From: Candidatus Omnitrophota bacterium
GTDB lineage: Bacteria; Omnitrophota; Omnitrophia; Omnitrophales; Aquincolibacteriaceae
Reading direction: 5' to 3'
Length of the DNA: 26,509 nt
NCBI GenBank assembly: GCA_023246985.1
Contig: JAHFHJ010000001.1
Location: forward strand, 18,514 to 45,022
This document shows, piece after piece, positions 10,000-25,233 of the stretch (position 1 is the first letter of the stretch; each line of letters opens with the position of its first letter). Both the position numbers and the translations under genes were made by a program. Under the pieces are notes generated by a model. The model searched no databases, was not told where the DNA came from, and saw only the letters and a list, made by a program, of their open reading frames with translations.

Positions 10000-10052
10000 G
10001 GGAACGGGAAACGTTGGGCGTTTAACGCCGGCGTTTTCCGTTTTACGTTTTA
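10000..10052 (+). terminator. Hairpin downstream of dnaK (possible intrinsic terminator) built of 7-nt units
   Basis: AACGGGAAACG (10003-13) pairs with CGTTTTCCGTT (10032-42), inner GGCG/CGCC with a TTTAA loop; followed by broken T runs. Confidence 0.45.
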
Positions 10053-10080
10053 CGGCGCCGCCAAAGCCAAAGAAGAACTG

Positions 10081-10953
10081 ATGCCTTACCGTACGAAATG
10101 GTTTTTGTTGTGCTTGATCTTGATGTTGGGTTTGCCTGGGCCTTGGGCCCTGGCTGTTCCACGCCTCAAGATCGATCCGCCCGTCAAAAAGATCCCGCTC
10201 GACCAACTCGCGATCCTGAAAATCCGACTCGAGTGGCCGCAAGACGAAGGACCGTATGAAATAAATTCCCGGGAGCCCATGCTCGAGAACCTGACCCTCG
10301 AAAAACAAAATCAGTCCCAGGAAACCGGCGCCGCCGTCCGTCATACCCTCACTTATGAGTTCCGTCCTGTCAAAAAAGGAGCGGCTGTCATTGATCCTTT
10401 TGAAGTCAGCTACCGGAAATCCGAGACAGAACCGTGGATCCCCCTCATGATCCCGGAACAAAATATGACGGTTGTTTCAAGCTGGCCGTTAAGATCGATC
10501 CTGATCGGGTTATTGATTGCGGCGGGATTTTTAGCGTTGATTTTGACGGGCTTCAAAGTGCGGACCACCCTGGCGGCTCGTAACGCCGCGAGAAATAGGC
10601 CCCCCCCGGATCCCAAACAAAGAATTTATGCGAAGGCGGAAGAATCGATTGCGACATTCGTCTCGCCGGATCCCAAAGAAAAACTAATTCACTGGTCGAA
10701 TCTGCTCCGGACCGTGGTCGTGACCTACTATGACATCTCCGATGGGAAAACGACTCTTGCCGAGGTCCTTTCACGCCTCCGATCGAAGGGCCTTTTGGCG
10801 GGGGAGTGGAACGAGGTCTCGCGTCTTTTTGAACAGCTTTCCGAGATGCAATTTTCCAGGCAGGACATTCCGGCCCATGCGCTTGAGCAACTCCAAAAGA
10901 CCCTCTTGCAATATGTAAGAGGCAAGATTATCATTGGCAACTTGAACGCTTGA
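10081..10953 (+). CDS. Secreted/membrane-anchored protein with BatD-like Ig-type N-terminal domain
   Basis: N-terminal signal peptide, beta-rich domain (TLTYEFRPVKKGAAVIDPFEVSY), one TM helix (ILIGLLIAAGFLALIL), helical cytoplasmic C-terminus; directly upstream of moxR. Family call is by pattern only. Confidence 0.55.
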   Translation: MPYRTKWFLLCLILMLGLPGPWALAVPRLKIDPPVKKIPLDQLAILKIRLEWPQDEGPYEINSREPMLENLTLEKQNQSQETGAAVRHTLTYEFRPVKKGAAVIDPFEVSYRKSETEPWIPLMIPEQNMTVVSSWPLRSILIGLLIAAGFLALILTGFKVRTTLAARNAARNRPPPDPKQRIYAKAEESIATFVSPDPKEKLIHWSNLLRTVVVTYYDISDGKTTLAEVLSRLRSKGLLAGEWNEVSRLFEQLSEMQFSRQDIPAHALEQLQKTLLQYVRGKIIIGNLNA

Positions 10954-11081
10954 TCATTTCCACCCCGTGAGAGACTTAAATATTTTGGGTGGATTGTGTT
11001 GTATTAAGTATTTATTCCTATAACTATGAAACGCGCCGCTGGGGTTCACACGATCTCTAACGGGGCAAGAAGGAGAACTCT

Positions 11082-12071
11082 ATGGACAGTTCGATCCAGG
11101 AAGTCAACGCCAAGATCCGTGAAGCCAACGCCTCGATCAAAGATCTCACCCGCGAGATCGGGAAGGTCATTGTCGGTCAACAATATCTCGTGGACCGGCT
11201 CCTCATGGCTCTTTTGGCCGACGGACACATCTTGATCGAAGGGGTTCCAGGCCTTGCCAAGACCCTTTCCGTACGGACCCTCTCCCAGGCCATTGATGCC
11301 CAATTCCAGCGCATCCAGTTTACTCCGGACCTCCTCCCGGCCGATGTGGTCGGAACCTTGGTCTATAACCCCAAAGACGGCCATTTTTCAACTAAAAAGG
11401 GCCCTATTTTTACCAATATCATCCTGGCGGATGAGATCAACCGGGCTCCTTCCAAGGTCCAAAGCGCGCTCCTGGAGGCCATGCAGGAACGCCAGGTCAC
11501 GATCGGCAATGAGACCTTCCCGCTGCCGGTCCCATTTCTCGTCCTTGCGACCCAAAATCCGATCGAACAAGAGGGAACTTATCCGCTGCCTGAAGCCCAG
11601 GTCGACCGTTTCATGCTGAAATTAGTCGTTAACTATCCCAGCAAAAAGGAAGAGAAAGAGATCCTGGAGCGCATGGCAACCGGCAAAATGATCCAAGTGA
11701 CGCCGGTTATGAACATTCACCAGATCATGGCCCTTCGAAAACTGCTGCACGAGATTTATATTGATGAAAAGGTGAAGGATTATATTCTCGATCTCGTATT
11801 CGCGACGCGCAATCCTCAGGATTACAAACTTCCGGACCTGAAGCCCCTAATTTCGTATGGCGCTTCGCCGCGCGCGAGCATCATGTTGACCCTGGCGGCC
11901 AAAGCACACGCCTTTCTCCAGGGACGCGGCTATGTCACTCCGGATGACGTCAAACAGATCGGATCGGACGTCCTGCGGCATCGCGTTCTTGTGACCTACG
12001 AAGCGGAAGCCGAGGACATCACCACCGACGATATCGTCAAAAAAATCTTCGATCAGGTCGAAGTCCCATAA
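11082..12071 (+). CDS. moxR: MoxR-family AAA+ ATPase
   Basis: HILIEGVPGLAKT (Walker A), RIQFTPDLLPAD, LADEINRAPSKVQSALLEAMQE, TQNPIEQEGTYPLPEAQVDRF, YGASPRAS; AAGGAG RBS. Confidence 0.96.
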   Translation: MDSSIQEVNAKIREANASIKDLTREIGKVIVGQQYLVDRLLMALLADGHILIEGVPGLAKTLSVRTLSQAIDAQFQRIQFTPDLLPADVVGTLVYNPKDGHFSTKKGPIFTNIILADEINRAPSKVQSALLEAMQERQVTIGNETFPLPVPFLVLATQNPIEQEGTYPLPEAQVDRFMLKLVVNYPSKKEEKEILERMATGKMIQVTPVMNIHQIMALRKLLHEIYIDEKVKDYILDLVFATRNPQDYKLPDLKPLISYGASPRASIMLTLAAKAHAFLQGRGYVTPDDVKQIGSDVLRHRVLVTYEAEAEDITTDDIVKKIFDQVEVP

Positions 12072-12094
12072 TTCTCAAGACCCATCACCCAAAG

Positions 12095-12124
12095 TTTGTC
12101 CGATAAGATCATCGGACGGACAAA
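12095..12124. repeat. Small hairpin with duplicated GGAC in the 3' arm
   Basis: GTCCGAT (12098-104) / ATCGGAC (12111-17) 7-bp stem with a 6-nt loop; TTTGTCC (12095-101) can alternatively pair with GGACAAA (12118-24). Confidence 0.5.
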
Positions 12125-12134
12125 GCTGATTTAA

Positions 12135-12269
12135 AAATAACCAAGATCCAATGACGAAGATCCCAATAATGATCAATCATCCAAATCAAATAACCCGACT
12201 GTTTTCCGACGATGGGTTATTGGATGTGGAATTTGTTTGATCATTGGTTCTTGGTTATTTAATCTTGGG
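12135..12269. repeat. Long imperfect inverted repeat with 7-nt periodicity
   Basis: 12135-12154 and 12241-12260 are reverse complements at 19/20 positions; inner AATAACCC (12189-96) pairs with GGGTTATT (12214-21). Confidence 0.8.
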
Positions 12270-12295
12270 TATTCCTAATAGAAGGTTCCCTGAAA

Positions 12296-13177
12296 ATGAT
12301 CCCCGCAGCGCTCCTTAAAAAAGTCCGAAAGATCGAGATCCGCACGACCCATCTGGTCAATGATCTTTTCGGCGGGGAATACGAATCCGTCTTCAAGGGA
12401 CAGGGCATCGAATTCGCGGATGTTCGGGAATATGTCCCGGGGGATGATATCCGTACCATTGACTGGAATGTGACGGCGCGTTCGCTTCATCCTTTCGTTA
12501 AAAAATTCGTCGAGACCCGCGAGCTCACAGTCCTCTTTGCGGTCGACATGTCCGGCTCGCAATATTTCGGATCCGCCGATAAACTCAAATCCGAGATCGC
12601 GGCCGAAATCACTGCCATCCTTGCCTTTTCTGCCGTCAAGAATAACGACAAAACCGGACTCCTCATCGCCACCGAAGGCGTCGAGAAATTCATCCCGGTC
12701 AAAAAGGGAAGGAACCACGCCCTCCGTGTTATTCGCGAGATCCTCGGATATCAGCCCCGGAAGAAGAAAACCATGCTTTCCGGAGCCCTGGAATATCTCT
12801 ACCGGATTCAGACGCGAACCTCGGTTATTTTTCTGATCTCGGACTTCATGGACGAAGGCTATGAAAAAGCCCTGAAGATCCTGAGCCGAAAACACGATGT
12901 CATCGCGATCTATCTTCGGGATGCTCTCGAGCGGCAGTTCCCAAAGGTGGGACTTGTGGAACTGGTCGACCGCGAAAACGGCGACACCTTGCTCGTCGAC
13001 ACGGCCTCGCCCCTGTTTCACAAGCGCTTTCGACAAATGGCGGATGCGCGACAAGCTTCTCTCGAAAAACTCTTCAAACGCCTTCAGATCGACTGTATTG
13101 AGATCCCGGCCGACACCTCCTATATCGAGCCGCTTTTCAGATTTTTTAAAAGCCGGGAGCGGGAGCGCAGGCGCTGA
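12296..13177 (+). CDS. DUF58 domain (vWA-like) protein, MoxR partner
   Basis: FKGQGIEFADVREYVPGDDIRTIDWNVTAR, FVETREL, VDMSGSQYFG, FLISDF. Confidence 0.93.
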   Translation: MIPAALLKKVRKIEIRTTHLVNDLFGGEYESVFKGQGIEFADVREYVPGDDIRTIDWNVTARSLHPFVKKFVETRELTVLFAVDMSGSQYFGSADKLKSEIAAEITAILAFSAVKNNDKTGLLIATEGVEKFIPVKKGRNHALRVIREILGYQPRKKKTMLSGALEYLYRIQTRTSVIFLISDFMDEGYEKALKILSRKHDVIAIYLRDALERQFPKVGLVELVDRENGDTLLVDTASPLFHKRFRQMADARQASLEKLFKRLQIDCIEIPADTSYIEPLFRFFKSRERERRR

Positions 13178-14175
13178 TGATACGTTCACGAAAGGGGATA
13201 AGCGGATTTTCCGCCGTAATACGGCGGACGGATCTGTCCTCTCTCATCATCCTTACCGTTGCTTTTCTCATGACGGCCGGCACGCTTCGCGCAGCAGAGG
13301 ACGCTATCAAGGTCACGGCCGAAGTGGATAAGGCATTCCTCACGATTGGAGACCCCGTCACGTACACGGTCACCGTCGAGCACGCGCCTGACATCCAGAT
13401 CCTTTCCAATATTCCGGCTCCGGACTCCGATATCCTCGAGATCAAAAAAGTCGAGGACCTTAACAAAAAAGGAAAAAAGACCATCCTTTCAGGGAAAAAA
13501 TTTATTCTCACGACCTACCGGCTCGGCGAGTTCATTCTCGGGCCCGTCACGATCCAATATCGCAAAGAAGGTCTACCGATCAAGAGCCTTCAGACGAACA
13601 AGCTTTACCTGACCGTCAAAAGCGTCGCGGAAGGCGAGTCCCAGGAAGACATTCGCGATGTAAAAAAAGTGGTCCCGTTCAAATGGCGCATGGGAAAATT
13701 CCTTTGGACGCTCCTTACGCTCGCGCTTTTGACGGCGGGTTATTTTCTCTTTCGATTTTTACGCGGTCAAAAGATCGCCCTGGTGCCCTCGGCACCGCCT
13801 TTGACGCCCGAGGAAGAGGCGCTTCTGCATTTGGGCGAACTCTATGAATCCGATCTTCTGAAACGCGGACTCATCAAGGCGTACTACCTGCGCCTCTCCG
13901 AGATCCTGAGGGTCTATTTCGAAAAACGCTACGGGATTCTTGCCGTGGAATCGACCACGTTCGAGATCCTGCGCGCGCTGAAACCTCAGCATCCGGATAG
14001 CGCGCTTTATCAGAAAATCCAATATGTTCTCGAGGCCGCGGACCTCGCAAAATTTGCCAAGTGGGTCCCGACCGCGCCCGAGGTTCTCCATCTCAACAAA
14101 AAATCCGAAGAGATCGTCAAGGAATCAGCGCCTCTTCCGGAACAAGCCCTCACGGAGACGCCTCATGGTGTTTAG
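13177..14175 (+). CDS. BatD-like N-terminal domain / DUF4381-type membrane protein of Bat operons
   Basis: Signal/TM segment, TAEVDKAFLTIGDPVTYTVTV, IRDVK, TM helix, YYLRLSEILRVYFEKRYG...ESTTFEIL, ADLAKFAK; TGATG overlap with DUF58. Confidence 0.75.
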   Translation: MIRSRKGISGFSAVIRRTDLSSLIILTVAFLMTAGTLRAAEDAIKVTAEVDKAFLTIGDPVTYTVTVEHAPDIQILSNIPAPDSDILEIKKVEDLNKKGKKTILSGKKFILTTYRLGEFILGPVTIQYRKEGLPIKSLQTNKLYLTVKSVAEGESQEDIRDVKKVVPFKWRMGKFLWTLLTLALLTAGYFLFRFLRGQKIALVPSAPPLTPEEEALLHLGELYESDLLKRGLIKAYYLRLSEILRVYFEKRYGILAVESTTFEILRALKPQHPDSALYQKIQYVLEAADLAKFAKWVPTAPEVLHLNKKSEEIVKESAPLPEQALTETPHGV

Positions 14176-15145
14176 GCATCCGGCATTCTTCCTGCTTCTG
14201 CTTCTGTTGCCCTTTGTTTTTAGGGGGTCCTGGCGCCGCGAAAAACTGGAATTCGCATTTTCTTCTTTGCAACTCCTCAAAGACCGGCCCGCGACCTCCC
14301 GAATGTTCTTTTTCAGGTTGTTGCCGGTCCTGCGCTTCGTCATGTTGGTGCTCCTCATTGCCGCGCTGGCCAGACCCTCGAACGTCTCGAGCGACAAGGA
14401 ATACCAGACCCACGGCGTCGATATCGTGATCGCTCTCGATATCTCGGGTTCCATGCTCGCCGAGGATTTTCAGCCGGAGAACCGCGTCTTCGTCGCCAAA
14501 CAGGAGGCCATCAAATTCATCAAAGGACGCGAAAATGACCGCGTCGGCCTTGTGGTGTTCTCCCAAAAAGCGTTCACGCAGTGCCCGCTCACGCTTGATT
14601 ACCGGATCCTTGTGGAACTTCTTTCCGAGATTCGGGTCGGTATGATCGCCGACGGTACCGCCATTGGCATGGGCATCGCGACCGCGGTGAACCGCCTCCG
14701 GGACAGCGACGCGAAAAGCAAGGTCATCATCCTGATCACGGACGGGGAGAACAACGCCGGGAATATTGACCCGGTCACGGCGGCAGAACTTGCCAAAAGT
14801 TTTGGCATCAAGATCTACACGATCGGCGTCGGACGGGGGGGGATGGTCCCGTTCCCGATCGATGACCCGCTTTTCGGCAAGCGCTATGTCCAGGCAAATG
14901 TGGAGGTCGATGAAACGACCCTGAAGCGCATCGCGGATATCACCGGCGGTCTTTTTTTCCGGGCCCGCGATCCCGCGGCGCTTTCTGAAATTTACGAACG
15001 GATCAACAAGCTCGAAAAGAGTGAGGTCAAGGTCAAAGAATACCGCAGCTTCAACGAACTCTTCCCGATCTTTTTGATCCCGGCGCTCCTCCTCCTGCTC
15101 CTGGATATTCTTTTGCGCCGGACCCTCCTGATGAAGGTGCCCTGA
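14165..15145 (+). CDS. batA: vWA-domain membrane protein BatA
   Basis: MVFRHPAFFLLLLLLP start, ALARP, DIVIALDISGSM (MIDAS), DRVGLVVF, GTAIGMG, ILITDGENNAG, VKEY, C-terminal TM. Start set to ATG 14165. Confidence 0.9.
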   Translation: MVFRHPAFFLLLLLLPFVFRGSWRREKLEFAFSSLQLLKDRPATSRMFFFRLLPVLRFVMLVLLIAALARPSNVSSDKEYQTHGVDIVIALDISGSMLAEDFQPENRVFVAKQEAIKFIKGRENDRVGLVVFSQKAFTQCPLTLDYRILVELLSEIRVGMIADGTAIGMGIATAVNRLRDSDAKSKVIILITDGENNAGNIDPVTAAELAKSFGIKIYTIGVGRGGMVPFPIDDPLFGKRYVQANVEVDETTLKRIADITGGLFFRARDPAALSEIYERINKLEKSEVKVKEYRSFNELFPIFLIPALLLLLLDILLRRTLLMKVP

Positions 15146-17148
15146 TGCAATTCTTCAAACCCGAATATTTTCTTTATCTCTGGCTGGTTCCGGCGGTTTT
15201 CGCACTTTTTATTTTCTCGCGCAAGCTTTGGAAAAAACGCCTGCGCCGCCTGGTCCGGGACGAAACGCTTCTCGCGAAATTGATCGAGGGATATCGTCAA
15301 GGCGAGTGGATGCTTCGCGCGGTTCTGACAACGCTCGCGGTACTTTGTTTTGTAGGGGCGCTTGCCCGGCCGCAATGGGGCGATGAAAAACGAAGCGTCC
15401 AGCGTAAGGGCGCGGACATTATTTTCCTGGTGGATACCTCACTCAGTATGCTGGCTGAAGACATCAAGCCCAGCCGCCTCGGCAAAGCCAAGTTCGAGAT
15501 CGAGACCTTTATCCGGAATCTCCGCGGAGACCGCGTCGGCATGGTCGCCTTTGCGGGCTCGGGATTCCTCCAGACGCCCCTGACCCTCGATCATGCGGCA
15601 TTTCTCCTGTTTCTGGATGCCGTTCAGGTCGGATTTCTTCCGGACCCGGGGACCTCACTCGTCCAAGCCATCCATTTGGCGATTAAGGCGTTCCCTCAGA
15701 AAGAACTCAAATATAAGGCCTTGATCCTCTTTACGGACGGGGAAGACCATGAAGGAGGCATTGAGAGGGCTATTGAGGAGGCCCAACAGGCTCATGTGCG
15801 CCTCTACGCCCTGGGACTGGGAACGGCGGAAGGGGAGCCCATTCCCCTCAAGAACGAGAAAGGGGAGCGCCAAGGCTTCAAAAAGGACCGTAGCGGGCAA
15901 ATGGTGCTCACCAAACTCAATCAGCCCCTCCTGGAACGGCTAGCCAGGGAAACGGGGGGCCTCTACCTTCCCGCCACGCCCGGTGAAAAAGAGGTCGAGG
16001 TCATCCTCAAACATCTCCGCGGATGGGGCGAGCAAAAGTTTGAAGAAAAAATGATTGTGGAGCGGGAAGACCAATACCAGGTATTCCTGATCCTTGCGTT
16101 GATCCTCCTTATCGCTGAAATGCTGATCCGGAGGAAAAACAAAAAGAATCCCGCGCTCCTGGCCTGTCTCGCGTCTTTTTTTCTTTTCACGGGATTCTTT
16201 GAGACCTCACAGGACACGATCAAAAAGGGCAACGACCATTTCCAGAACAAGCGCTACCAGTCGGCGCTAGAAAACTATCGCAAGGTCCAAATCAAAAACC
16301 CGGACGCCCCGGAAGTGCTTTACAATCTCGGAACCGCGCTTTACAAGGTCGATTCTTTCCAGGAATCAGCCCAAGACCTCGATCATGCGGCCGCCAAGGC
16401 CGAAGACCCGCGGCTGAAGGCTCGCGCGCTTTATAACTTCGGCAATACCCAGTACCGCCTCGGGAATTTTGAACAAGCCATCGACTCCTATAAAAAAGTC
16501 CTGGCGATCGATCCCACCGATAAGGATTCCAAATACAACCTGGAGTTCCTCCAGAAGCAGAAAAATAAATTTGAGAAAAAAGACCAAGACCGGAAAAAAG
16601 AAGACCCAAAAAAAGATTCACGGCAAAACCAGCAAAAGAACCGACAGGATCAACAGCCGCAACAAGGTCAAGGCCGGCAAGACCAGAAAAATCAAGGCCA
16701 GGGTCAGCAAGATAAGCAAGATCAGAAAGACACGCAACAAAAGCTCTCGCCGAGCCAGAGTCAGCCGCAAGATCAAAAGGATCAGAGGGAGCAACAGCAA
16801 AACCAACAGCAACAGAATCAGGAACAAGGCGAGCAGGATCAGAAGAATAAAGAACAACAGCAAAAAGACCAGGCGCAAAAAGAAAGAGAAGAACAGCAAC
16901 AACGCGCGCAGGAGCAGAAAGACCAGGAAAGAAAGGATCAGGATGAGCAACAGCGGCAGCAGCAAGATCAGCAAAAAAGTGATTCGGAGAAGCGGCAGGG
17001 GCAAGCGAAACAGCCTCTCCAGGGTCAGATGAGCATGGATAACGCCCTAAACCTTCTGGATGCCCTCAAGGAATCCGAAAAAGAGCTCCAGGACCTTCGC
17101 CGTCCGCCGGTCAATAAGAACCCGCCTCCGGTGGATAAGGACTGGTAA
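15145..17148 (+). CDS. BatB (vWA) - BatC (TPR, Gln-rich) fusion protein
   Basis: ALARPQWG, DIIFLVDTSLSM, DRVGMVAFAG, LFTDGEDH, TM helix, then TPRs (YNLGTALYK, YNFGNTQYRLG, DSKYNLE), about 150-aa Q/K/D/E-rich tract and a LLDALKESE...KDW C-terminus; one uninterrupted frame. Confidence 0.88.
   Translation: MQFFKPEYFLYLWLVPAVFALFIFSRKLWKKRLRRLVRDETLLAKLIEGYRQGEWMLRAVLTTLAVLCFVGALARPQWGDEKRSVQRKGADIIFLVDTSLSMLAEDIKPSRLGKAKFEIETFIRNLRGDRVGMVAFAGSGFLQTPLTLDHAAFLLFLDAVQVGFLPDPGTSLVQAIHLAIKAFPQKELKYKALILFTDGEDHEGGIERAIEEAQQAHVRLYALGLGTAEGEPIPLKNEKGERQGFKKDRSGQMVLTKLNQPLLERLARETGGLYLPATPGEKEVEVILKHLRGWGEQKFEEKMIVEREDQYQVFLILALILLIAEMLIRRKNKKNPALLACLASFFLFTGFFETSQDTIKKGNDHFQNKRYQSALENYRKVQIKNPDAPEVLYNLGTALYKVDSFQESAQDLDHAAAKAEDPRLKARALYNFGNTQYRLGNFEQAIDSYKKVLAIDPTDKDSKYNLEFLQKQKNKFEKKDQDRKKEDPKKDSRQNQQKNRQDQQPQQGQGRQDQKNQGQGQQDKQDQKDTQQKLSPSQSQPQDQKDQREQQQNQQQQNQEQGEQDQKNKEQQQKDQAQKEREEQQQRAQEQKDQERKDQDEQQRQQQDQQKSDSEKRQGQAKQPLQGQMSMDNALNLLDALKESEKELQDLRRPPVNKNPPPVDKDW
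16561..17025 (+). repeat. Low-complexity Gln/Lys/Asp/Glu-rich coding tract (QDQK-type units)
   Basis: Recurrent CAAGATCAGAAAGA / CAGGATCAGAAGAA / AAAGACCAG-like units; strongly purine- and A-rich on the + strand. Confidence 0.8.
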
Positions 17149-17178
17149 AAAAAATCACCTTACCGAGGGAGAATATTT

Positions 17179-17625
17179 ATGAGCCTCATGGAGCAAATCG
17201 AAAAGGATGTTATCGCCGCGATGAAGTCCAAAGATATTGTCAAACTCTCAACGCTCAGGATGCTCAAAAGCGCCGTCGTGAACTATCTGATCCATGCTAA
17301 AAAGGACAAGGCGGATGATCCGGAGGTCCTCGGCATGGTGGCCAAACAGGCCAAACAGCGCCGGGAGAGTCTTGAAATCTTTGAAAAGGCCGGTCGCAAG
17401 GACCTGGCGGATCAAGAGAAGGCCGAGCTCGCGATCCTGGAGGATTATCTTCCTAGGCAACTGACGGATGAAGAACTGAGGGTGGAAGTCCGAAATGCTA
17501 TTAGAATATCGGGCGCCGCCGGCCCATCGGACATGGGAAAGCTTATAAAAATCCTCATGCCAGCCATCCAGGGAAAAGCCGACGGCAAGCGCGTCCAGGA
17601 AGCTGTCAAGACCCTTCTGAAATAG
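17179..17625 (+). CDS. yqeY: GatB/YqeY domain protein
   Basis: MSLMEQIEKDVIAAMK, TLRMLKSA, KQRRESLEIFEKAGRKDLADQEKAEL.ILEDYLP.QL, DMGKLIK, GKADGK; GGGAG RBS. Confidence 0.92.
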   Translation: MSLMEQIEKDVIAAMKSKDIVKLSTLRMLKSAVVNYLIHAKKDKADDPEVLGMVAKQAKQRRESLEIFEKAGRKDLADQEKAELAILEDYLPRQLTDEELRVEVRNAIRISGAAGPSDMGKLIKILMPAIQGKADGKRVQEAVKTLLK

Positions 17626-17676
17626 TTTCAAGCGACATCCCGAAGAAACATCCTAGGGGCCCCGTCTCTCTACGCT

Positions 17677-17704
17677 ACTTTACATAAGATATATTATAGG
17701 TCGT
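17677..17704 (-). other. dif: XerC/XerD dif-like recombination site
   Basis: Minus strand reads ACGACCTATAA-TATATC-TTATGTAAAGT: 11-6-11 architecture with a TTATGTAAA XerD-type arm and the inner ATAA/TTAT inverted pair; located between convergent gene blocks. Confidence 0.8.
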
Positions 17705-17921
17705 ATTCGCGCCATGTCCTCCCTACGCAGAGGTTGTCATTCTTGAGCTACCGTCCTTTTGCTTCCCGGGAACGGAAACTCTTTAGCGATGCCGCGACGT
17801 CGATCAAAGCCCCTTCCAGATAAAGCGCTCCCGTAAGACAGGCTTCGCGGACGTAGCATTTCTCTACAAGAAATGTACTTAATGAGAGGCTATCAGCCTG
17901 TAACAAAAGCTTCGAAATTAG

Positions 17922-18425
17922 CTACTCGTTGCCTTTTTCACGCGGCCGCGGGAGAAGATCGGTTTTGAGGCAGGTCACATGATCGATAAAAAGAACGCCG
18001 TTCAAATGATCCACTTCATGCTCCACGCAGATTGCTTCGATCCCAGTGCTGACCTTTTCATGGAATTCGCCTTGCGTGTCCTGCCACCTGAAACGCACCC
18101 ACCGGTGGCGTTTCAGGAACGCCGTATAATCCGGAAGGCTCATACACCCCTCTTTGCGCGTTTCCGGTTCCCTCGTTTCAAGGATCACGGGGTTGACGAG
18201 AATGAGACGCTCCGCTTGGGGTTCGCGTTTGGAAACATCCACGATGGCAACGGCCCTGGCCGTCCCGATCTGCGGCGCCGCGATGCCGATCCCGCGCGGC
18301 TGGCTTTTCATAACGCGCACTAACGCGGCCACAAGTTTCAAAAGCGAACGGTCGAATACCGTGACCCTCTGCGCTTTTTTCCTGAGAATCGGGTTCGGAA
18401 AGATCCTAAGAGACGCGGGGTTCAT
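17922..18425 (-). CDS. def: Peptide deformylase
   Basis: All three PDF motifs present: GIGIAAPQIG, EGCMS, HEVDHLNG. Confidence 0.96.
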   Translation of the reverse strand: MNPASLRIFPNPILRKKAQRVTVFDRSLLKLVAALVRVMKSQPRGIGIAAPQIGTARAVAIVDVSKREPQAERLILVNPVILETREPETRKEGCMSLPDYTAFLKRHRWVRFRWQDTQGEFHEKVSTGIEAICVEHEVDHLNGVLFIDHVTCLKTDLLPRPREKGNE

Positions 18426-18431
18426 CAGGGA

Positions 18432-18983
18432 TTACAGAGAAACGCGTTCCAAAGGCCGGGTCTGAATCTCAATCATTAATTTCCGAGAGACCTTCGCCAA
18501 AAGGGTTTTGAGTTTTGCCAAAACCGTTGTTCCGGGGACATCCACTTCCAGAAGCATCGCGTAGGTCGTCTTGGCGCCCTTGCCAAGGATGCGGCTGTCG
18601 AGATCCGTGATATTGACCCGGAGCCCCGCCAACGCCCGGCTCACTTCATACACGATCCCGGTACGGTCCTTTCCGAATGCGGTCACGATATAGGGAAGGC
18701 ATCCGGACGCATGCTTTCTCCCGCGCGAGATCTTCCCTGTCAGTTCCGTCATGTGACAATCCATGGACCACGGCGCGGAGCCAAGGATCTCAAGACCCTG
18801 CGCGACCCGCGCTACGGACGAAGGCGACGGAAGACACGCCGTCATCATCATGGCGAATTGCCCCTCCAAAAGAGTCATGCTGATATCTTCCAGGTTACAG
18901 CCCCGGGCGAATAAAAGGCCGCTCAGTTTGGCGATAATCCCGGGCTTGTCTTTACCGCTGACCGTGATCAGGATTTTTTTCAT
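18432..18983 (-). CDS. Tandem ACT-domain protein, GcvR (glycine cleavage regulator)-like
   Basis: Two ACT repeats: ILITVSGKDKPGII...GCNLEDISM and IVTAFGKDRTGIV...VNITDLDS. Confidence 0.8.
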   Translation of the reverse strand: MKKILITVSGKDKPGIIAKLSGLLFARGCNLEDISMTLLEGQFAMMMTACLPSPSSVARVAQGLEILGSAPWSMDCHMTELTGKISRGRKHASGCLPYIVTAFGKDRTGIVYEVSRALAGLRVNITDLDSRILGKGAKTTYAMLLEVDVPGTTVLAKLKTLLAKVSRKLMIEIQTRPLERVSL

Positions 18984-20632
18984 TTCTTCTTTCCCTCCAA
19001 TATTTTAGAAAGCGCGTCCATGCCCCGCTGAATCATCTGATCCTGTTCCGAGATCGGCTCTCGCGGTTGAGACGGCCCGCTCGGGGTTGAGGCCGTTCCG
19101 GTCTTTGGGGAACCGAGCACCTTGGAAAGCCGTTCCATCCCCCGGTTCAGAAGCTGATCCGCCCCGCTTTGAAGCAGCCGCGAAGCGATATACGAAAGAT
19201 CCGGCTGGACCGAAACATCTGGAAAAACGCCGCCACAGCGAAACGGGATCGTCACCTGACCGTTCGGGTCCGACAAGAATTTCAATTCCCGTATTTTCCT
19301 CATGAGATACCCGGAAAGTGACCGCGAAAATGCGAGCTGCATCGAACCCTCCGCGCGTTTATCCGAGATCCCATAGTTGCCTTGACCGCTCAACTGATAG
19401 TTCGGATGCGTGAGCCGGAATTCACTCACGCTCGCCCGCCCCCCTTGCGCGGCATATTTGACCCGCAGGAACTGAAACGGCGTATCGCGACCTTTCAACA
19501 TTTCGCTCACCTCCGGAGGCAGATCCCCGCCCAAAGCGGTCGTGATCGCGAGTACCGGAGAAAGCTTGTCGAAAATCTCCTGGATCAGGTTCCGGTTCCG
19601 AAGAGCTCCATCCTTGATCTCGAGCGTTCCATGCCCCGCGAGCGAGCGCGTTATAACATCGGGATTGGCTCCGTCAAAGATGAGGTTCGCCCCGGCGCTG
19701 AGCCGTCCGGTCACATACTCGCCTTTTTTATAGGCCTCGGGAATCACGGAATCCATCTCCAGATCTCGGATCTCAAGCGCTCCCTCAAAATGGGGCATGG
19801 TACGGATCACTTTGAGCAAGCCCCTGAACACGACTTGTTCCGGGCCATAGCGAAGCACAAGGGCCAACGACTGTGCCTTCAGATCGAGATCCCCTTCCGT
19901 CTCCAGATTTTTGGGGGTAGCGCCCAATACCGATCCGCCAGCGGTGAAATGCAACGGTGAAACCGCGGCCTTCTGAAGAACCTCCGCCTCAAGCTTTTCA
20001 ATATTCATCCGGAAAGACGGCACGACGGTTTCATCCACAAAATGAACGATCCCGTCGCTCACGAGCACTTTCCCAAGACTGAATTCCCACCCTTGAGTCA
20101 GATCCGCGATACCCTGCGCTGGACTCGCGAGAGCGGAGACGCCCACATCTTCCGCCACTTCGGCCACGGGCATCCCTCTGCCCTTGGAACGCATGGGCTG
20201 AGTCATGGGCGGCGGCTTCGCAAGAGTATCGGAGATTTGCCAATTCCAGTTCCCGGCGGAATTGCGCCTGATGAAGATCTCCGGACTCCGGATCAAGGCC
20301 TGCGACAGACTCAAGCGCTTCTGCCAGATCGAGATCAGATTCACATCAATTTGGACACTCCGGCTTTGCAGAAGTTTTTCGAGAGTTTGAGGATGATAGA
20401 ATTTGAGGCTATCCACTTCAAGCCGAGGCTGGGGCCGCCAAGCGAGCCGTATCTTCCCAAGCTCCATGCGAAAACCCGTCCGTTCGGTAAGTTGTTTTTC
20501 CAATTCCGAGCGGAACATGTTGGGATCGAAGTTTCGCAGCATGATAAAACTGACCGCGCCTAAAACAATCCCGAGGATCAGAAGCGCGGTTAAAAAGCCA
20601 ATAAGGAATTTCAGGAGGCCTCGTAGGACCAT
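18980..20632 (-). CDS. AsmA-family (repeating beta-groove) envelope protein
   Basis: N-terminal TM anchor, FDPNMFRSELEKQLTERTG, beta-rich body, SLAGHGTLEIKDG, DTPFQFL, LSGQG, IPFRCGG..P.V.PD C-terminal pattern. Confidence 0.8.
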   Translation of the reverse strand: MVLRGLLKFLIGFLTALLILGIVLGAVSFIMLRNFDPNMFRSELEKQLTERTGFRMELGKIRLAWRPQPRLEVDSLKFYHPQTLEKLLQSRSVQIDVNLISIWQKRLSLSQALIRSPEIFIRRNSAGNWNWQISDTLAKPPPMTQPMRSKGRGMPVAEVAEDVGVSALASPAQGIADLTQGWEFSLGKVLVSDGIVHFVDETVVPSFRMNIEKLEAEVLQKAAVSPLHFTAGGSVLGATPKNLETEGDLDLKAQSLALVLRYGPEQVVFRGLLKVIRTMPHFEGALEIRDLEMDSVIPEAYKKGEYVTGRLSAGANLIFDGANPDVITRSLAGHGTLEIKDGALRNRNLIQEIFDKLSPVLAITTALGGDLPPEVSEMLKGRDTPFQFLRVKYAAQGGRASVSEFRLTHPNYQLSGQGNYGISDKRAEGSMQLAFSRSLSGYLMRKIRELKFLSDPNGQVTIPFRCGGVFPDVSVQPDLSYIASRLLQSGADQLLNRGMERLSKVLGSPKTGTASTPSGPSQPREPISEQDQMIQRGMDALSKILEGKKK

Positions 20633-21072
20633 AGACCTTCGCCCTTCTTCCTGGCTTCCTCCTGGACCTTCAGGAATTTGGCTTTATGGCTGAAGTCCTG
20701 GGTCTCGGCGACTTTAGCGGCTCCGACTTTCACAAGAAATTCATTGAGAAGAACTTCCTGCTCGTCAGGGACCTCATTCAATTTAAACGGAAATTTCACG
20801 TATTTTGCCTGGAGATACGCGTAGGCGGACTCTTGGGCTCCCGGAGCGGGATGGATCAGCAACTGAAATTTCAGGTCCTGCTTCTGCGCAAGGACCCGCA
20901 GGACCGAGATCCCCTCCGCGTCCATCTGGATCCCCGCCAAAACAACCCGTTTTCCGTCGGCGAGCGTCAGCGTCCCGTCCCCACCGACCTCCGTGACAAC
21001 CTCCGCGCAAAGAATCGCCGGCGCCCCGATCAGCAGAACCAGTATCATGAAAACAAAAATCGCCTTTTTCAT
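20611..21072 (-). CDS. Secreted thermonuclease (SNase)-like domain protein, probably degenerate
   Basis: Signal peptide; VTEVGGDGTLTLADGKRVVLAGI and LNEFLVKVGAA...FLKVQEEARKKGEGLWS match the SNase scaffold. Confidence 0.7.
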   Translation of the reverse strand: MKKAIFVFMILVLLIGAPAILCAEVVTEVGGDGTLTLADGKRVVLAGIQMDAEGISVLRVLAQKQDLKFQLLIHPAPGAQESAYAYLQAKYVKFPFKLNEVPDEQEVLLNEFLVKVGAAKVAETQDFSHKAKFLKVQEEARKKGEGLWSYEAS

Positions 21073-21101
21073 CTCTTCCTCAAGGACGCGCTGAAGGCGT
21101 C

Positions 21102-21506
21102 TTATGACGGAAAGCGTTTATAGCGGATCATTTCCCCCTTAGCATAAATACGGCCTTGCGGAAATTTTGAGGCCGTAAGATCGGGCCAATATTGCATGTG
21201 AATAACCGCCTCCGCCTGATGATTTTTCCTGGCGACTTTGAGGATCTTCTCATTCAGCAAATCCCGCAAATAAGCCTCCTGCGAGATATTCTCAAAGCGA
21301 CCGAATGTGATCCACTCCCAAGCCTGGCCGAAGATTCTCCTGTAGGAAATCCGGGGTGCCGGGCGATCGACCTCGATCGAACCGAGCGAGTCGTACGACG
21401 GGTTGAGATCGCCCTGTATCGCGACAACCTTCTGCACCCTGGAACATCCACCATGCATACCCAAAATCATGACCACACTCAACATCAAAGCCCATGAATA
21501 TTTCAT
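21102..21506 (-). CDS. Putative lipoprotein, YbjQ-like fold (tentative)
   Basis: Signal peptide ending HGG-C21; YDSLGSIEV...A..N.QAEAVIH...YAKGEMIRY pattern; GGAGGG RBS at 21519-21514. Confidence 0.55.
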   Translation of the reverse strand: MKYSWALMLSVVMILGMHGGCSRVQKVVAIQGDLNPSYDSLGSIEVDRPAPRISYRRIFGQAWEWITFGRFENISQEAYLRDLLNEKILKVARKNHQAEAVIHMQYWPDLTASKFPQGRIYAKGEMIRYKRFPS

Positions 21507-21529
21507 GTTAAATCCCTCCGTTGAAGTTT

Positions 21530-21647
21530 CTATCCTTGTCTGAAACTTGATTTCTTAAATGGTTGACAAGGATTGCCCCAATTTCAACTTCGCCGAAATT
21601 GATAAATATTGGGACTATCCTTGTCTGAAACTTGATTTCTAAAATGG
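21530..21647. repeat. 33-bp direct repeat (2 copies, 32/33 identical) with a partial inverted copy in the 52-bp spacer
   Basis: CTATCCTTGTCTGAAACTTGATTTCT(T/A)AAATGG at 21530-21562 and 21615-21647; GACAAGGATTG at 21565-21575 is the reverse complement (10/11) of the repeat's first 11 nt. Confidence 0.9.
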
Positions 21648-21713
21648 CAGTTGGAACGGCCCCCTCCCGTCAGAGGCGGGATGATCGACATTGGGGACCA
21701 TTATACCTTTCGT

Positions 21714-23057
21714 TTACGGCAAGTGTCTGATCTTTTGCTTGGCCCATGCGAGCGCCTCTTCGCGGGTCTCATGCGTTCCTTCCAGCTGAAGCTCGTAAAG
21801 TTCTTCAAGCACCGGTTTCATGGCCGGACCGGGCTTCATGCCAAGGTCCATCAGATCGTGCCCGTTCACGAGCGGCTTGGGTTTGAGCTCCTCATTTGCG
21901 TACTCCTTGAGCTTGTCCTGGAGGAACGCGAGATTATCCAGCATCCCGTGGCTCGCCGTGCAATCCGCGCGGTGGAGCTCCATTTCGTCCTTAAAATGCG
22001 GGCGGCTGATGAATTGCTTCAGTTTCCCGGCCCGCATTTTCTGAACCTCCATGAATTTCATATGATTGGCCACGCATTCCGCGACGCCGTCGATCTCCTC
22101 GTTGGAGAATCGCAGCCGTTTCATGATCTCACACGCGATCTTCACGCCTTCCTCGGAATGCTCGTAAAAAGTCAGCCGCCCCTTGCGGATCGCGGCCGTC
22201 TTGGGCTTCCCGATATCGTGAAAAAGCGCGGCAAACGCAAGAGTTGTCGAGACCGGAGGATGAAAATGCTCCAGAAGGAGCCGGGTATGTTCATAGACAT
22301 CGCCCTCGGGATGAAAATTTTCGGGCTGCTTGACGCCGCGCATTGTCTCGACCTCGGGAAGGATCTCTTTCATAAGCCCCGACTCGGAAAGAAGCACGAA
22401 ACCCCGCGCCGCGCCGGCTCGCGTGAAGATCTTCACGATCTCTTCGCGGATCCGCTCAGGGCTCACGGCATGAATCCCGGAAGCCTGCTTGCGAAGCGCG
22501 TCCCATGTTTTTTTCTCGATCTCAAAACCCAGCGTGGAGGCAAAACGGATCGCCCGGAGAAGCCGGAGCTTGTCTTCTTCGAAACGGGCTGCAGGATCCC
22601 CGATAGCGCGGATCACTTTCAGGGGCAGGTCTTCGAGACCCCCCACAAAGTCGATCACTTTCTCCGCGGACGGGTCATAAAACATCCCGTTCACCGTAAA
22701 ATCACGCCGCTTGGCGTCTTCCTCGGGCTGGGTGAAGGCGACATGGGCGGGATGACGGCCGTCCTGATAACCGCCTTCGCAGCGGAAAGTCGCCACCTCG
22801 AACGGGGCCTCTCCTTCCACAACGATCATCACGCCGAATTGCTTACCGACGGGGATCGTCTTGCGGAAGATCTTCTCGACCTCGTCAGGCGTCGCAGTCG
22901 TGGCGATATCAAAATCCCGCGGCCCTTGGCCCATCAGGTGATCGCGAACGCAACCCCCCGCGAAATAGGCGGTGAAGCCCCTCTCGCTTAGGGTCTTGGC
23001 GATCGCGAACGCAAGCCGTGCTTTCGGTTCGCTAAGGTCCATCGGTCCGGGATTCAT
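21714..23057 (-). CDS. cca: CCA tRNA nucleotidyltransferase with HD domain
   Basis: AGGCVRD..DFDIAT, EDAKRRDFTVN, EDKLRLLRAIRF, HPEGDVYEHT, ALFHDIGKP. The upstream segment reads VGKQFGVMIV, not the G-R/K-R/K-F signature of poly(A) polymerase. Confidence 0.88.
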   Translation of the reverse strand: MNPGPMDLSEPKARLAFAIAKTLSERGFTAYFAGGCVRDHLMGQGPRDFDIATTATPDEVEKIFRKTIPVGKQFGVMIVVEGEAPFEVATFRCEGGYQDGRHPAHVAFTQPEEDAKRRDFTVNGMFYDPSAEKVIDFVGGLEDLPLKVIRAIGDPAARFEEDKLRLLRAIRFASTLGFEIEKKTWDALRKQASGIHAVSPERIREEIVKIFTRAGAARGFVLLSESGLMKEILPEVETMRGVKQPENFHPEGDVYEHTRLLLEHFHPPVSTTLAFAALFHDIGKPKTAAIRKGRLTFYEHSEEGVKIACEIMKRLRFSNEEIDGVAECVANHMKFMEVQKMRAGKLKQFISRPHFKDEMELHRADCTASHGMLDNLAFLQDKLKEYANEELKPKPLVNGHDLMDLGMKPGPAMKPVLEELYELQLEGTHETREEALAWAKQKIRHLP

Positions 23058-23070
23058 TCCGCTCCATCGG

Positions 23071-23391
23071 TTAGAGACTGAAAAAATCGCGGGCCGCCTT
23101 GGCTCCCGCGGATTTCTGATAATCCTGGTAATCGATCAGCATAAGATCCGGCCGTTTTTCCGCAAGACGCCGGGCTAGCTGAAACCGTTCGGCCGGATGT
23201 GTTTCAAGACGGCGGCTTGCGATATATTTAAAAACCGCCCCGCAGGCCGGACAGGATTGGGTCGCGTAGGCATTGATCCCGAGCTCATTGCAGGAAGCAC
23301 AATTCCCCGAGAGATCTCCGATAATCAGAAGATTTTTTTTTACCTCTTCAAGATCGAACGGCTGATAGGTCCTTAAATAATGCTGTGCCAT
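23071..23391 (-). CDS. Hypothetical protein with zinc-ribbon motif
   Basis: CASC-x12-CPAC; fits between neighbouring same-strand genes with gaps of 13 and 18 nt. Confidence 0.75.
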   Translation of the reverse strand: MAQHYLRTYQPFDLEEVKKNLLIIGDLSGNCASCNELGINAYATQSCPACGAVFKYIASRRLETHPAERFQLARRLAEKRPDLMLIDYQDYQKSAGAKAARDFFSL

Positions 23392-23409
23392 CGCTACTCA
23401 TCCTTCGCG

Positions 23410-23892
23410 TTATATCTTGGTCACCCTATCTCCGGCACGGACACGGGACTGCACCTCCACGCCGAAATCATCGCCTTTTCTGGCGATCAAAACCGGCTGG
23501 TGATCGATTTGCATGGAAGCGACCTTTTGGGTAAAATTGGTGGTATGTCCCTTGAAATGCAGCTTATCCCCCACGCGGATCGTCCCAACCTTGATCTTAA
23601 GCACCGCAGCATTGACGTGCGGGAAATAATGTGTCACTTCCGCGATCGGCAATGCCGCCAAAGCTTCTTTGACCATGACCGTCGGCTTTTTAGAGGCCGC
23701 TTTTTTCTTCGCGGTTTTGCCCTCAGACCTGGGCGCAGCTTTTTTAGCCAACCGCTTCTTGGCCGATTTTGTCACTTTCTTTTGAGCGATTTGGGCGGTT
23801 CCTTTCTTTGGGGCCTTCTGGAAAGATTTCCCGGTTTTCCGGGACTTGGAAGAGCCTAAAAGTGCTTTGCCGAGCTTCTTTAAAAACTTCAT
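23410..23892 (-). CDS. Translation-elongation-factor-like (EF-Tu domain II-type beta-barrel) protein with Lys/Ala-rich N-terminal extension
   Basis: C-terminal IAEVTHYF.HVNAAVLKI..GTIRVGD.LHFKG.TT.FTQ.V.SMQIDH..V..A.KGDDFGVEV..RVR.GDRV; N-terminal KKAAP/KKKAASKK tracts; GGGGGG RBS-like run. Confidence 0.8.
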   Translation of the reverse strand: MKFLKKLGKALLGSSKSRKTGKSFQKAPKKGTAQIAQKKVTKSAKKRLAKKAAPRSEGKTAKKKAASKKPTVMVKEALAALPIAEVTHYFPHVNAAVLKIKVGTIRVGDKLHFKGHTTNFTQKVASMQIDHQPVLIARKGDDFGVEVQSRVRAGDRVTKI

Positions 23893-24028
23893 GGTGTCCC
23901 CCCGTTAGAGTTTTAACAGTGTGAAACAAGATTTTCGGTCGACGATGATAAAAACAATAAACATCATTACCCTGTCAAAATCTTTGGGACCCCAACGGGG
24001 TCAATCCTTCGGTGAATGGCGAAACGGT

Positions 24029-25111
24029 TTATGAATCTTTTTCCAAAACGATCTCTCTGGGCGTTGGTCCGGTCACCTCCCCCTGATGCTGCTCCAGCAC
24101 ATTCAGCCGGTTCCGGAGTTTCTGGAACCGCTGCTCGGTTTTCTCATACGCCGTGCGGGCGTGCGCCAGATGCCCCCCGATCTTCTCAAAATCCGTAAGA
24201 CACTGCTCGAGATCGACTTCCAGCTGACCCAGATTTTCAAGAATAATCTGCGCCGAACGTTCGATCCGCATGCCTTTCAAGCCCCGCACGATCGCCTGGA
24301 GATACGCGTAAAAACTGTTCGGCGAAACCGGGATCACTTTGCACTTCATGGCGTAGGACGACAAACTTTCGTTCTGGGCGTCATCCTTGATGATCGTTTC
24401 ATAGTAAATGCTTTCGGACGGAATATACATCAACGCAAACTCAAACGTGCCTTCTTCCGGAAGAATGTATTTCGTCCCGATATCGTCGATATGTTTTTTG
24501 ACATCGCGCCCGAACACCTTGCGGGCCTCCGCCCGCTTTTCGTCGCTCCCCGCTTCCAGGATCCGCTTAAAATTCTCCAGCGGGAACTTCGCATCCACCG
24601 GGATCAATCCGTCCCCGAGCCGGATGATCGCATCCACCTGCGACCCGTTCGCGAAACGGTACTGAAGCGAGAAGTGGTCTTCCGGCAGGATCTGGCGCAA
24701 AAGTTCCGCGAGCAATAGCTCCCCCATCCCGCCGCGAAGTTTGGGAGCGCGGAGAATGTCATGAAGCGACGCGATATCCTTCCCGATATCCATCATGGAC
24801 TGCGTGGCATGCTGCAAGACCCCGAGCCGGTGCTGAACATCCCCCATCACCTGCCGGTAACTCTGCTGGTTCTCCTGCAGGAACTCTGAGTTCTGTTTCA
24901 TCTGATCGTTCATCTGCCGGGAAAGCGCCGAGATCTGGTCCTGGAGCGTGGTATTAAGATTGTGGAGTTCGTGCTGGAGTTGGAAAAAAGGCTGGAAGGA
25001 TTTATCGGCGGCGTCTGACCGCTTGGACAGGCGCTGAAAAAGCCCCAACGCCGCGGCAAATCCGCAGAAGGACGCCGTAATCGCAATCAGAACCAAAAGA
25101 GAAATATCCAT
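24029..25111 (-). CDS. rmuC: DNA recombination protein RmuC
   Basis: N-terminal TM, coiled coil, PKLRGGMGELLL, VDAIIRL..G.IPVDAKFPLENF, KHIDDI..KYI.P.EGT.EFALMYIPSE, PVSPNSFYAYL. Confidence 0.93.
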   Translation of the reverse strand: MDISLLVLIAITASFCGFAAALGLFQRLSKRSDAADKSFQPFFQLQHELHNLNTTLQDQISALSRQMNDQMKQNSEFLQENQQSYRQVMGDVQHRLGVLQHATQSMMDIGKDIASLHDILRAPKLRGGMGELLLAELLRQILPEDHFSLQYRFANGSQVDAIIRLGDGLIPVDAKFPLENFKRILEAGSDEKRAEARKVFGRDVKKHIDDIGTKYILPEEGTFEFALMYIPSESIYYETIIKDDAQNESLSSYAMKCKVIPVSPNSFYAYLQAIVRGLKGMRIERSAQIILENLGQLEVDLEQCLTDFEKIGGHLAHARTAYEKTEQRFQKLRNRLNVLEQHQGEVTGPTPREIVLEKDS

Positions 25112-25158
25112 GGCGGATTATAAACGATTATCGCTTCGCTGTCATTGCGCGGTTATGC

Positions 25159-25233
25159 ATCGACACGCGCGCAACGGGCAGCACTCAACGAAAAACTTTG
25201 ACGTTGTGCTTTGCGCATTGAGCGTTGCGCGTT
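25159..25233. repeat. Imperfect inverted repeat of 7-nt units at the RNase E/G stop codon
   Basis: Right arm TGACGTT GTGCTTT GCGCATT GAGCGTT GCGCGTT (25199-25233); left arm AACGGGC AGCACTC AACGAAA (25173-93), preceded by CGCGCGC. Confidence 0.7.

Follow-up and report, generated by a model that had tools for sequence, protein, structure and literature searches.

Intergenic hairpins with arms of complementary seven-nucleotide arrays, with and without a PF05635 gene, in an uncultured groundwater bacterium of the Omnitrophota

Tandem heptamer repeats of the kind called short tandemly repeated repetitive (STRR) sequences have been known since 1990; they are over-represented in many bacteria without a detailed explanation, and slippage is the sole proposal (PMC4692102). 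Recorded arrays include the STRRs of heterocystous cyanobacteria, GGGAATC in Xanthomonas, GGGGAYT in Nostoc and TAACTGA in Beggiatoaceae (PMC4692102, PMC4679880). A second described system joins a long stem to a small gene: in the S23p intervening sequence (IVS) of Coxiella an open reading frame (ORF) of the PF05635 type occupies the loop of a stem whose two sides are terminal inverted repeats and which is cut by RNase III (PMC4990558). PF05635 is the '23S rRNA intervening-sequence protein' family, whose members are Avd-like four-helix-bundle proteins, that is, they resemble the Avd protein of diversity-generating retroelements (DGRs) (PMC10053308). Here we describe three intergenic elements, located 3′ of dnaK, moxR and rng in a 26,509-nt stretch of DNA (the window) from an uncultured bacterium of the Omnitrophota. 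Our data support the view that all three belong to one structure-defined class: stem-loops placed right after a gene, with arms that are complementary tandem arrays of 7-nt units. The same data support the existence of two forms of this class, one gene-less and one bearing a PF05635 gene.

The window corresponds to contig C110:18514-45022 of a genome bin from a groundwater metagenome (1.50 Mb in 185 contigs, 82.5% complete, 53% G+C). The best named matches of its MoxR, too conserved a protein to settle the phylum, include metagenome-assembled genomes of Omnitrophota, Nitrospiraceae and Verrucomicrobia. Positions given alone are those of the window, and C-numbers denote contigs of the bin. G000 is the genome of the window; other G-numbers are relatives, from the same genus unless called more distant. 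Intergenic DNA, or spacers, is whatever crude gene calls leave uncovered; the calls take up 87% of the genome. The three elements are composed as follows.

10000-10013, + strand: element 1, left arm of two units (GGGAACG GGAAACG), starting 9 nt past the dnaK stop codon
10014-10031, + strand: element 1, apical part with a small inner hairpin (GGCG-TTTAA-CGCC)
10032-10052, + strand: element 1, right arm of three units (CGTTTTC CGTTTTA CGTTTTA)
12136-12200, + strand: element 2, A/C-rich left arm with units CCAAGAT CCAATGA CGAAGAT (CCAANNN)
12201-12209, + strand: element 2, apical loop region
12210-12273, + strand: element 2, G/T-rich right arm of NNNTTGG units
25202-25231, − strand: element 3, 5′ arm in the sense of rng, four units (CGCGCAA CGCTCAA TGCGCAA AGCACAA CG), abutting the rng stop codon
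25191-25201, − strand: element 3, loop
25166-25190, − strand: element 3, 3′ arm of three units (CGTTGAG TGCTGCC CGTTGCG CGCG)

The arms of all three elements are periodic in seven. Identity at lag 7 is 0.90, 0.46 and 0.63 for elements 1, 2 and 3, against at most 0.57, 0.33 and 0.38, respectively, at the best other lags. Relative to shuffled arms these values correspond to P≤0.0002, P=0.0012 and P≤0.0002, and the periodicity remains at P≤0.004 for each element when any lag from 4 to 11 is permitted. A preliminary description of the window had placed three elements with mirrored heptamer arms at these positions, 3′ of a gene, and the arm periodicity confirms it. Tandem Repeats Finder (TRF) reports the right arm of element 1 as 3.3 copies of CGTTTTA; the units of element 3 are of the GCGCAAC type and number three in one arm and four in the other.

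The fold of element 1 (10001-10044) has a predicted energy of −29.2 kcal/mol on the + strand (z −2.4) and −19.8 kcal/mol on the − strand (z +0.2), the latter being weaker because several of the pairs between the arms are G-U and form on the + strand only. Its tail on the sense side is U-rich but interrupted. Element 2 forms a 138-nt hairpin (12136-12273) of −52 kcal/mol (z −5.6), a value equalled by none of 200 shuffles. Contigs of the source sample end within this palindrome, and in a second groundwater sample (X2) a variant was seen whose right arm is short by 18 nt at 12226. A search of the whole window against Rfam matched zero families.

The preliminary description called for a genome-wide scan for inverted repeats with a lag-7 signal, and the outcome was positive. 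Autocorrelation of intergenic DNA across the whole 1.5-Mb genome gives z=12.8 at lag 7, a weak signal at lag 5 (z=4.4) and values at or below zero at lags 4, 8, 10 and 11; autocorrelation at multiples of three reflects residual coding sequence. With one criterion applied to all periods, 41 intergenic tracts of period 7 were found, followed by 28 of period 14, and between 0 and 8 for each of periods 4, 5, 8, 10, 11 and 13. These 41 are the share lying outside gene calls among 67 strict period-7 tracts. A single motif behaves in the same way: CCAA repeated with 3-nt spacing occurs six times in the genome, while of ten other spacings eight give no occurrence, period 12 gives three and period 14 gives one. 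The signal resides in hairpin arms, where lag-7 identity across 178 intergenic hairpins is 0.302 versus 0.24-0.26 at other non-triplet lags; the arms of 'hairpins' in coding DNA have no lag-7 peak. Seed-based folding of the genome yielded raw pair counts that did not discriminate, and scans of composition and period did better.

Period-7 tracts are also paired. TRF detected 130 such tracts; for 45 of them a reverse-complement partner scoring at least 22 lies no more than 1.5 kb away, against seven in a reversed-only control; at a score of at least 24 the figures are 34 and two. This bears on the alternative that there is no system at all, merely unrelated stem-loops (terminators, attenuators, chance palindromes) on which a heptamer-slippage bias of bacterial polymerases has imposed a register. 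Heptameric repeats are indeed over-represented in many bacteria, with slippage of the polymerase as the suggested origin (Rehm et al. 2015, PMC4692102). Slippage alone nevertheless leaves the complementary pairing of the arrays unexplained, and we consider this alternative improbable.

In all, some 40 hairpin loci built from complementary heptamer arrays were catalogued, falling into at least 12 unit classes, among them GCGCAAC, TACGGCG, GATAAGC, CGAAATN, TAGGGGN, CAGACNN, AGCCATG, GAGTGAN, AAACGNN and CCAANNN. The largest class has about 10-11 loci, and the arrays are short, with two to five units. Each unit class of the window has additional copies elsewhere in the genome, another point raised in the preliminary description: element 1 has siblings at C127:32030 and C158:11327, element 2 is one of 11 CCAA-type hairpins, and element 3 has about ten siblings of the GCGCAAC type. 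Two long arrays are one-sided, with no equally long partner arm: (TTGTCTG)x7.9 at C119:14521-14575, perfect with a 100% match, and (TTCTGTC)x8 at C166:1381-1435, with an 85% match.

Position relative to genes is a further property of the class. Each of the three elements has a stop codon (of dnaK, moxR or rng) on one side and a co-directional gene on the other, in the following setting.

8066-9991, + strand: dnaK, stop codon at 9989-9991
10081-10953, + strand: gene for a 290-aa protein, between dnaK and moxR
11082-12071, + strand: moxR
12095-12124, + strand: small hairpin (GTTTGTCCGATAAGATCATCGGACGGACAAAG) between the moxR stop codon and element 2, lacking a heptamer build
12296-13177, + strand: DUF58 gene
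24029-25111, − strand: rmuC, with its start at 25111
25117-25145, − strand: promoter-like ATGACA-17-TATAAT just before the rmuC start, the best promoter match of a consensus scan in the region
from 25232, − strand: rng (RNase E/G gene), stop codon at 25232-25234

Genome-wide, the context was defined for 34 hairpins: 29 are in spacers between co-directional genes, five between convergent genes and none between divergent genes, where about 2.5 would be expected (a difference that alone is not significant). The hairpin mostly starts 0-11 nt past the upstream stop codon and nearly fills the spacer. Given the promoter-like site at rng-rmuC, element 3 has the end of rng on one side and the putative rmuC promoter on the other. 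The −10 box of this site ends 5 nt ahead of the ATG, and the TATAAT is kept in 15 genomes of the genus; the spacing suggests that the rmuC mRNA may be leaderless.

All three window elements are gene-less and contain no ORF. The preliminary description mentioned that similar heptamer arms flank genes for four-helix-bundle proteins in other genomes, and this proved to be so here. In G000 five contigs match PF05635, with genes at four places and a fragment on C90. With a cut-off of 33.8 bits, the genes on C185, C127 and C116 reach 103-120 bits, and each lies between complementary arms.

C185:2195-2506: PF05635 gene; arms CAACGNN (1928-1957) and CGTTGNN (2612-2637)
C127:28903-29220: PF05635 gene; arms GAGTGAT (28850-72) and ATCACTC (29262-91)
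C116:10833-11147: PF05635 gene with one in-frame TAG; arms GCTNAGA (10773-806) and its complement (11165-200)
C44: PF05635 gene at the contig edge

The association extends to the genus. A survey of 20 genomes returned 69 PF05635 matches in 19 of them, and 30 loci were examined by aligning the flanking arms and scoring their periodicity, with a reversed control. Bracketing inverted arms with a score of at least 24 were present at 24 of the 30 loci and at none of the 30 controls, and the best arm period was seven at 27. The arm units of these cassettes include the unit classes to which element 1 (GGGGAAC) and element 3 (CAACGNN) belong. The PF05635 gene is on the strand of its upstream neighbour at 29 of 29 loci, and the downstream neighbour is on the same strand at 13 and on the opposite strand at 15; such a rule fits a promoterless gene that would be expressed by read-through. 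Because the same arms bracket these apparently promoterless genes, the class comprises gene-bearing and gene-less forms. Arm and cargo also vary together: PF05635 domains of cassettes with the same arm unit are 70-86% identical, and those of cassettes with different arm units are on average 43% identical (62-69% inside a shared site). If the stem-loops were unrelated and their register a product of slippage, neither the bracketing of 24 of 30 PF05635 genes nor the co-variation of arm unit with cassette protein would be explained.

Two other measures were less informative. RNA duplex energy between gene flanks did not distinguish cassette arms, and in a strict local alignment of the flanks of 907 genes the arms on C185 ranked first, those on C127 54th and those on C116 196th. 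The sole reverse-transcriptase gene of the bin (C170:611-1273) is not on any of the five PF05635-matching contigs, and on this ground a link to a DGR was rejected.

Among relatives, the occupants of orthologous sites change. Downstream of dnaK, a hairpin of the form (GGGGAAC)2/(GTTCCCC)2 with a small inner hairpin is present in 11 of 16 genomes of the genus, namely in G000 and in 10 of the 15 relatives compared. Of the cells of the alignment, 93% are paired, and at 4 of its 15 pairs both sides have changed; the orthologues of G001 and G008 end in a T-run. In G012 and G010 the site is taken by a GCGGATG-type hairpin instead. To judge from this alignment, element 1 is an old, genus-conserved, sense-specific stem, most simply the dnaK terminator, held in a 7-nt register. 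A conserved, terminator-like element 1, with T-runs in two orthologues, is also what would be expected if no system existed.

Twelve more distant genomes had a usable moxR-DUF58 locus; the spacer is 0-20 nt long in 11 of them and 108 nt in the twelfth (G037). In 17 genomes of the genus it measures 21-299 nt, with mutually unrelated sequences, and the CCAA hairpin is found in G000 only. Element 2 is therefore a lineage-specific gain at a site that repeatedly acquires hairpins. In G009 and G016 the spacer contains another element, with inverted repeats at its ends (CCCCGTTAGAA...TTCTAACGGGG), of which the 3′ half alone is seen in G010 and G002.

At rng-rmuC a heptamer-armed hairpin is present in nearly all of 15 relatives, directly past rng and ahead of the conserved TATAAT. 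At least six different units are found across the genus, including the following.

GCGCAAC: G000, G002, G006, G001
CCACGNN: G007, G004
GGGACTC: G016, G009
AGAC-type: six genomes
GAGCCAT: G012

Six unit types at one site in one genus are likewise unaccounted for by slippage among unrelated stem-loops. Together with the 12 or more unit classes of the G000 genome, they support the earlier proposal that the conserved trait is the register and the fold-back, not a motif.

The preliminary description further proposed to look in relatives for filled versions of these loci. The unit classes of elements 1 and 3 do serve as cassette arms in the genus; at dnaK, moxR-DUF58 and rng-rmuC themselves, no PF05635-filled version was found in 15-17 relatives. 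A single site does show all states, namely that of the C127 cassette. In G008 the flanking genes overlap (ATGAATAA) and there is no spacer; in G009 and G015 the spacer measures 20-26 nt; hairpins of four unit types, or what remains of them, occupy the site in about 11 genomes; and G000 has the PF05635 cassette (28850-29291). The cassette arms recode the last four codons and the stop codon of the upstream gene and supply the first ~8 codons of the downstream gene, which encodes a UvrD-like helicase. In a tree of the helicase G000 groups with the empty-site genomes G008 and G009, from which it follows that the cassette was probably gained in the G000 line. Recent transposition was rejected because the nearest relative of its protein in the genus is 60% identical. 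The suggestion that the hairpins may be empty forms of an insertion is partly supported, by the several states of this site, and does not suit element 1, which is conserved and terminator-like and not a recent insertion. Arm types also appear, tentatively, to be scattered over the trees of the flanking proteins at rng-rmuC and at the C185 site (site A). All flank trees, that of the helicase included, are single-protein neighbour-joining trees without support values.

Such turnover is what would be seen if the hairpins were selfish, non-autonomous palindromic insertions, comparable to miniature inverted-repeat transposable elements (MITEs) or REPINs (paired repetitive extragenic palindromic, REP, sequences), which have no host function, are spread in trans by the PF05635 protein or some other enzyme, and survive in the short spacers 3′ of genes, the places where they are least damaging. 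Presence and absence together with different hairpin types at single orthologous sites, the gain of the C127 cassette in G000, the scatter of arm units over flank-gene trees and the occurrence of several unit classes at 5-11 loci each all agree with this, as does the absence of strand bias in folding (see below), a property that palindromes acting at the DNA level would show. Against it, the unit is all that copies of a class have in common, loops and unit order being wholly different, and bursts of near-identical copies are missing; the junctions that were compared, those of one site, show no target-site duplications; no Y1/RAYT (REP-associated tyrosine transposase) gene (PF01797) was found in the 82%-complete genome; the protein of the C127 cassette has a nearest genus relative that is just 60% identical; and the dnaK hairpin has been kept in place genus-wide with compensatory changes. 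On balance we regard purely selfish insertion, the main rival of the explanation that follows, as rather unlikely, though the two are not mutually exclusive.

The architecture, its genome-wide excess, the position after genes, the orientation rule, the PF05635 link and the turnover at orthologous sites are direct observations. The explanation that we favour, at a probability of about one half, is that the class functions as RNA: a stem transcribed by read-through that ends, insulates or is processed from the upstream message, and whose unit sequence is renewed while register and fold-back persist. The element would be transcribed from the upstream gene, and pairing of its arms would yield a long stem of double-stranded RNA, which could then end or insulate the upstream transcript, acting as a terminator, as a block to 3′-exonucleases or as a processing site of the RNase III type; in the filled form the stem would frame the PF05635 message. 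Upkeep would be by structure and not by sequence. Renewal could take place by slippage within an array, by copying of one arm from the other, or by replacement of the whole hairpin or cassette at the same 3′-of-gene sites, and would change the unit, with the 7-nt register and the fold-back left intact. The RNA-processing part of this scheme is plausible given that G000 has an RNase III gene (rnc) and that RNase III excises the stem-bounded IVS of Coxiella with its PF05635-type ORF.

A number of observations weigh against a role as RNA. Among 33 hairpins flanked by same-strand genes (crude calls), 18 fold better in the sense and 15 in the antisense direction (P=0.34), and a U-tract after the hairpin is mostly absent. 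None of the three window elements was called a canonical terminator in a consensus scan. With no sense-strand bias, few U-tracts and no terminator call, there is no direct sign of RNA-level selection across the class, element 1 excepted, and an RNA function is unproven. Element 3 is the weakest of the three hairpins, since its 106-nt fold does not surpass those of shuffled sequences (z −0.1 and −1.1), a result that would equally be expected if the stem-loops formed no system. Catalogued hairpins occupy only ~5-10% of spacers of 40-150 nt and so are no general requirement for ending transcripts. Fourteen of the 29 co-oriented PF05635 loci represent one orthologous site, which reduces the orientation rule to about ten independent cases. 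The length of the unit, 7 nt, is left unexplained. The one metatranscriptome of the source sample has no coverage of this organism.

The symmetry of folding between strands raises the further possibility that the palindromes act as DNA: as folded single-strand or cruciform sites for recombination, for the capture of cassettes in the manner of attC, or for a DNA-binding protein. Apparently promoterless, cassette-like genes that are always co-oriented with the upstream gene would suit such sites, as would the discordance between cassette type and flank trees at site A. One unit class only, GTTGCGC, resembles the attC core GTTRRRY; most classes do not resemble attC cores. Moreover, the genome encodes a single tyrosine recombinase and contains no cassette array, the left and right arm of each cassette complement each other where attC sites are each a palindrome of their own, and the hairpins come after ordinary housekeeping genes. 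We therefore hold action at the DNA level to be very unlikely.

A broader proposition can be made, tentatively and with more doubt than confidence: heptamer-armed hairpins and PF05635 cassettes may be one widespread, structure-defined kind of element, in which a promoterless Avd-like gene and its matching arms form a unit that occupies, and is exchanged at, fixed sites after genes, with the gene-less stems as derivatives or landing sites, and the activity of this element may be the source of the heptamer excess in bacterial intergenic DNA. The literature searched contained no description of the paired-arm architecture or of its PF05635 link. The class offers a way to test why 7-base repeats are so numerous in bacteria, and the genus is a compact test bed, with one spacer that holds six units, one site that is empty, hairpin-only or filled, and arm units that co-vary with their proteins. 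It can now be asked whether the stems are signals for RNA processing or termination, whether an Avd-like protein recognises its own arms, and how a palindrome is rewritten while the 7-nt register stays. For annotation there is a warning: what looks like a short 'repeat' 3′ of a gene is in many cases a paired stem, whose arms can recode the ends of neighbouring genes.

Other repeats were observed elsewhere in the genome. Paralogous ~120-aa proteins with N-terminal hydrophobic stretches are encoded at C29:603-983 and C148:12432-12788, each bracketed by inverted copies of GAGAACGGTACTAAAGGG, a second bracketing repeat that is not built of heptamers. On C130 (1-700) an 81-aa GIY-YIG ORF (287-487) lies between direct repeats of ~125 nt (39-165 and 527-655), beside a tRNA-like sequence. 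A long-hairpin repeat of ~190 nt is near-identical at C170:1913-2105, near the reverse-transcriptase gene, and at C72:20704-20896.

How does the class compare with known systems? As with REPs, REPINs and MITEs, the elements are dispersed intergenic palindromes that vary in presence and absence between relatives; unlike these, the copies have no conserved full-length sequence. A REP/REPIN system with a RAYT was rejected because PF01797 (Y1) was not found in the 82%-complete genome and copies share the unit only, and MITEs were rejected because there are no near-identical copies (best second match E=0.016) and no target duplications (junctions of one site). Integron attC sites were discarded given the single tyrosine recombinase and arms that pair across the gene. 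Element 1 resembles a Rho-independent terminator in being a strand-specific stem-loop after a gene, with compensatory changes and, in some orthologues, a T-run. In contrast, elements 2 and 3 and most of the class lack a U-tract, have stems of 25-60 pairs and fold equally on both strands; the absence of U-tracts and of sense-strand bias led us to reject a canonical terminator for the class as a whole.

STRR-type arrays share more: tandem 7-nt units that are strongly intergenic, with several units per genome, differ in length and sequence between close relatives and are occasionally inverted (PMC4692102, PMC4679880). The arrays described here differ in being short (2-5 units) and typically complementary, as the paired arms of one post-stop hairpin. 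They fall into 12 or more unit classes with none dominant, in place of a few units in very many copies; they bracket PF05635 genes; and their host is an uncultured groundwater bacterium, not a cyanobacterium. The 23S rRNA IVSs of Coxiella and Leptospira agree with our elements in having an optional ORF of the PF05635 family and terminal inverted repeats that form a long stem, and differ in that ours are found in spacers of protein-coding genes, where the IVSs are inserted in a helix of 23S rRNA, and have arms of tandem heptamers. For the arms, the nearest published counterpart is the STRR, or heptamer-repeat, phenomenon; for the gene-bearing form it is the ORF-bearing 23S rRNA IVS.

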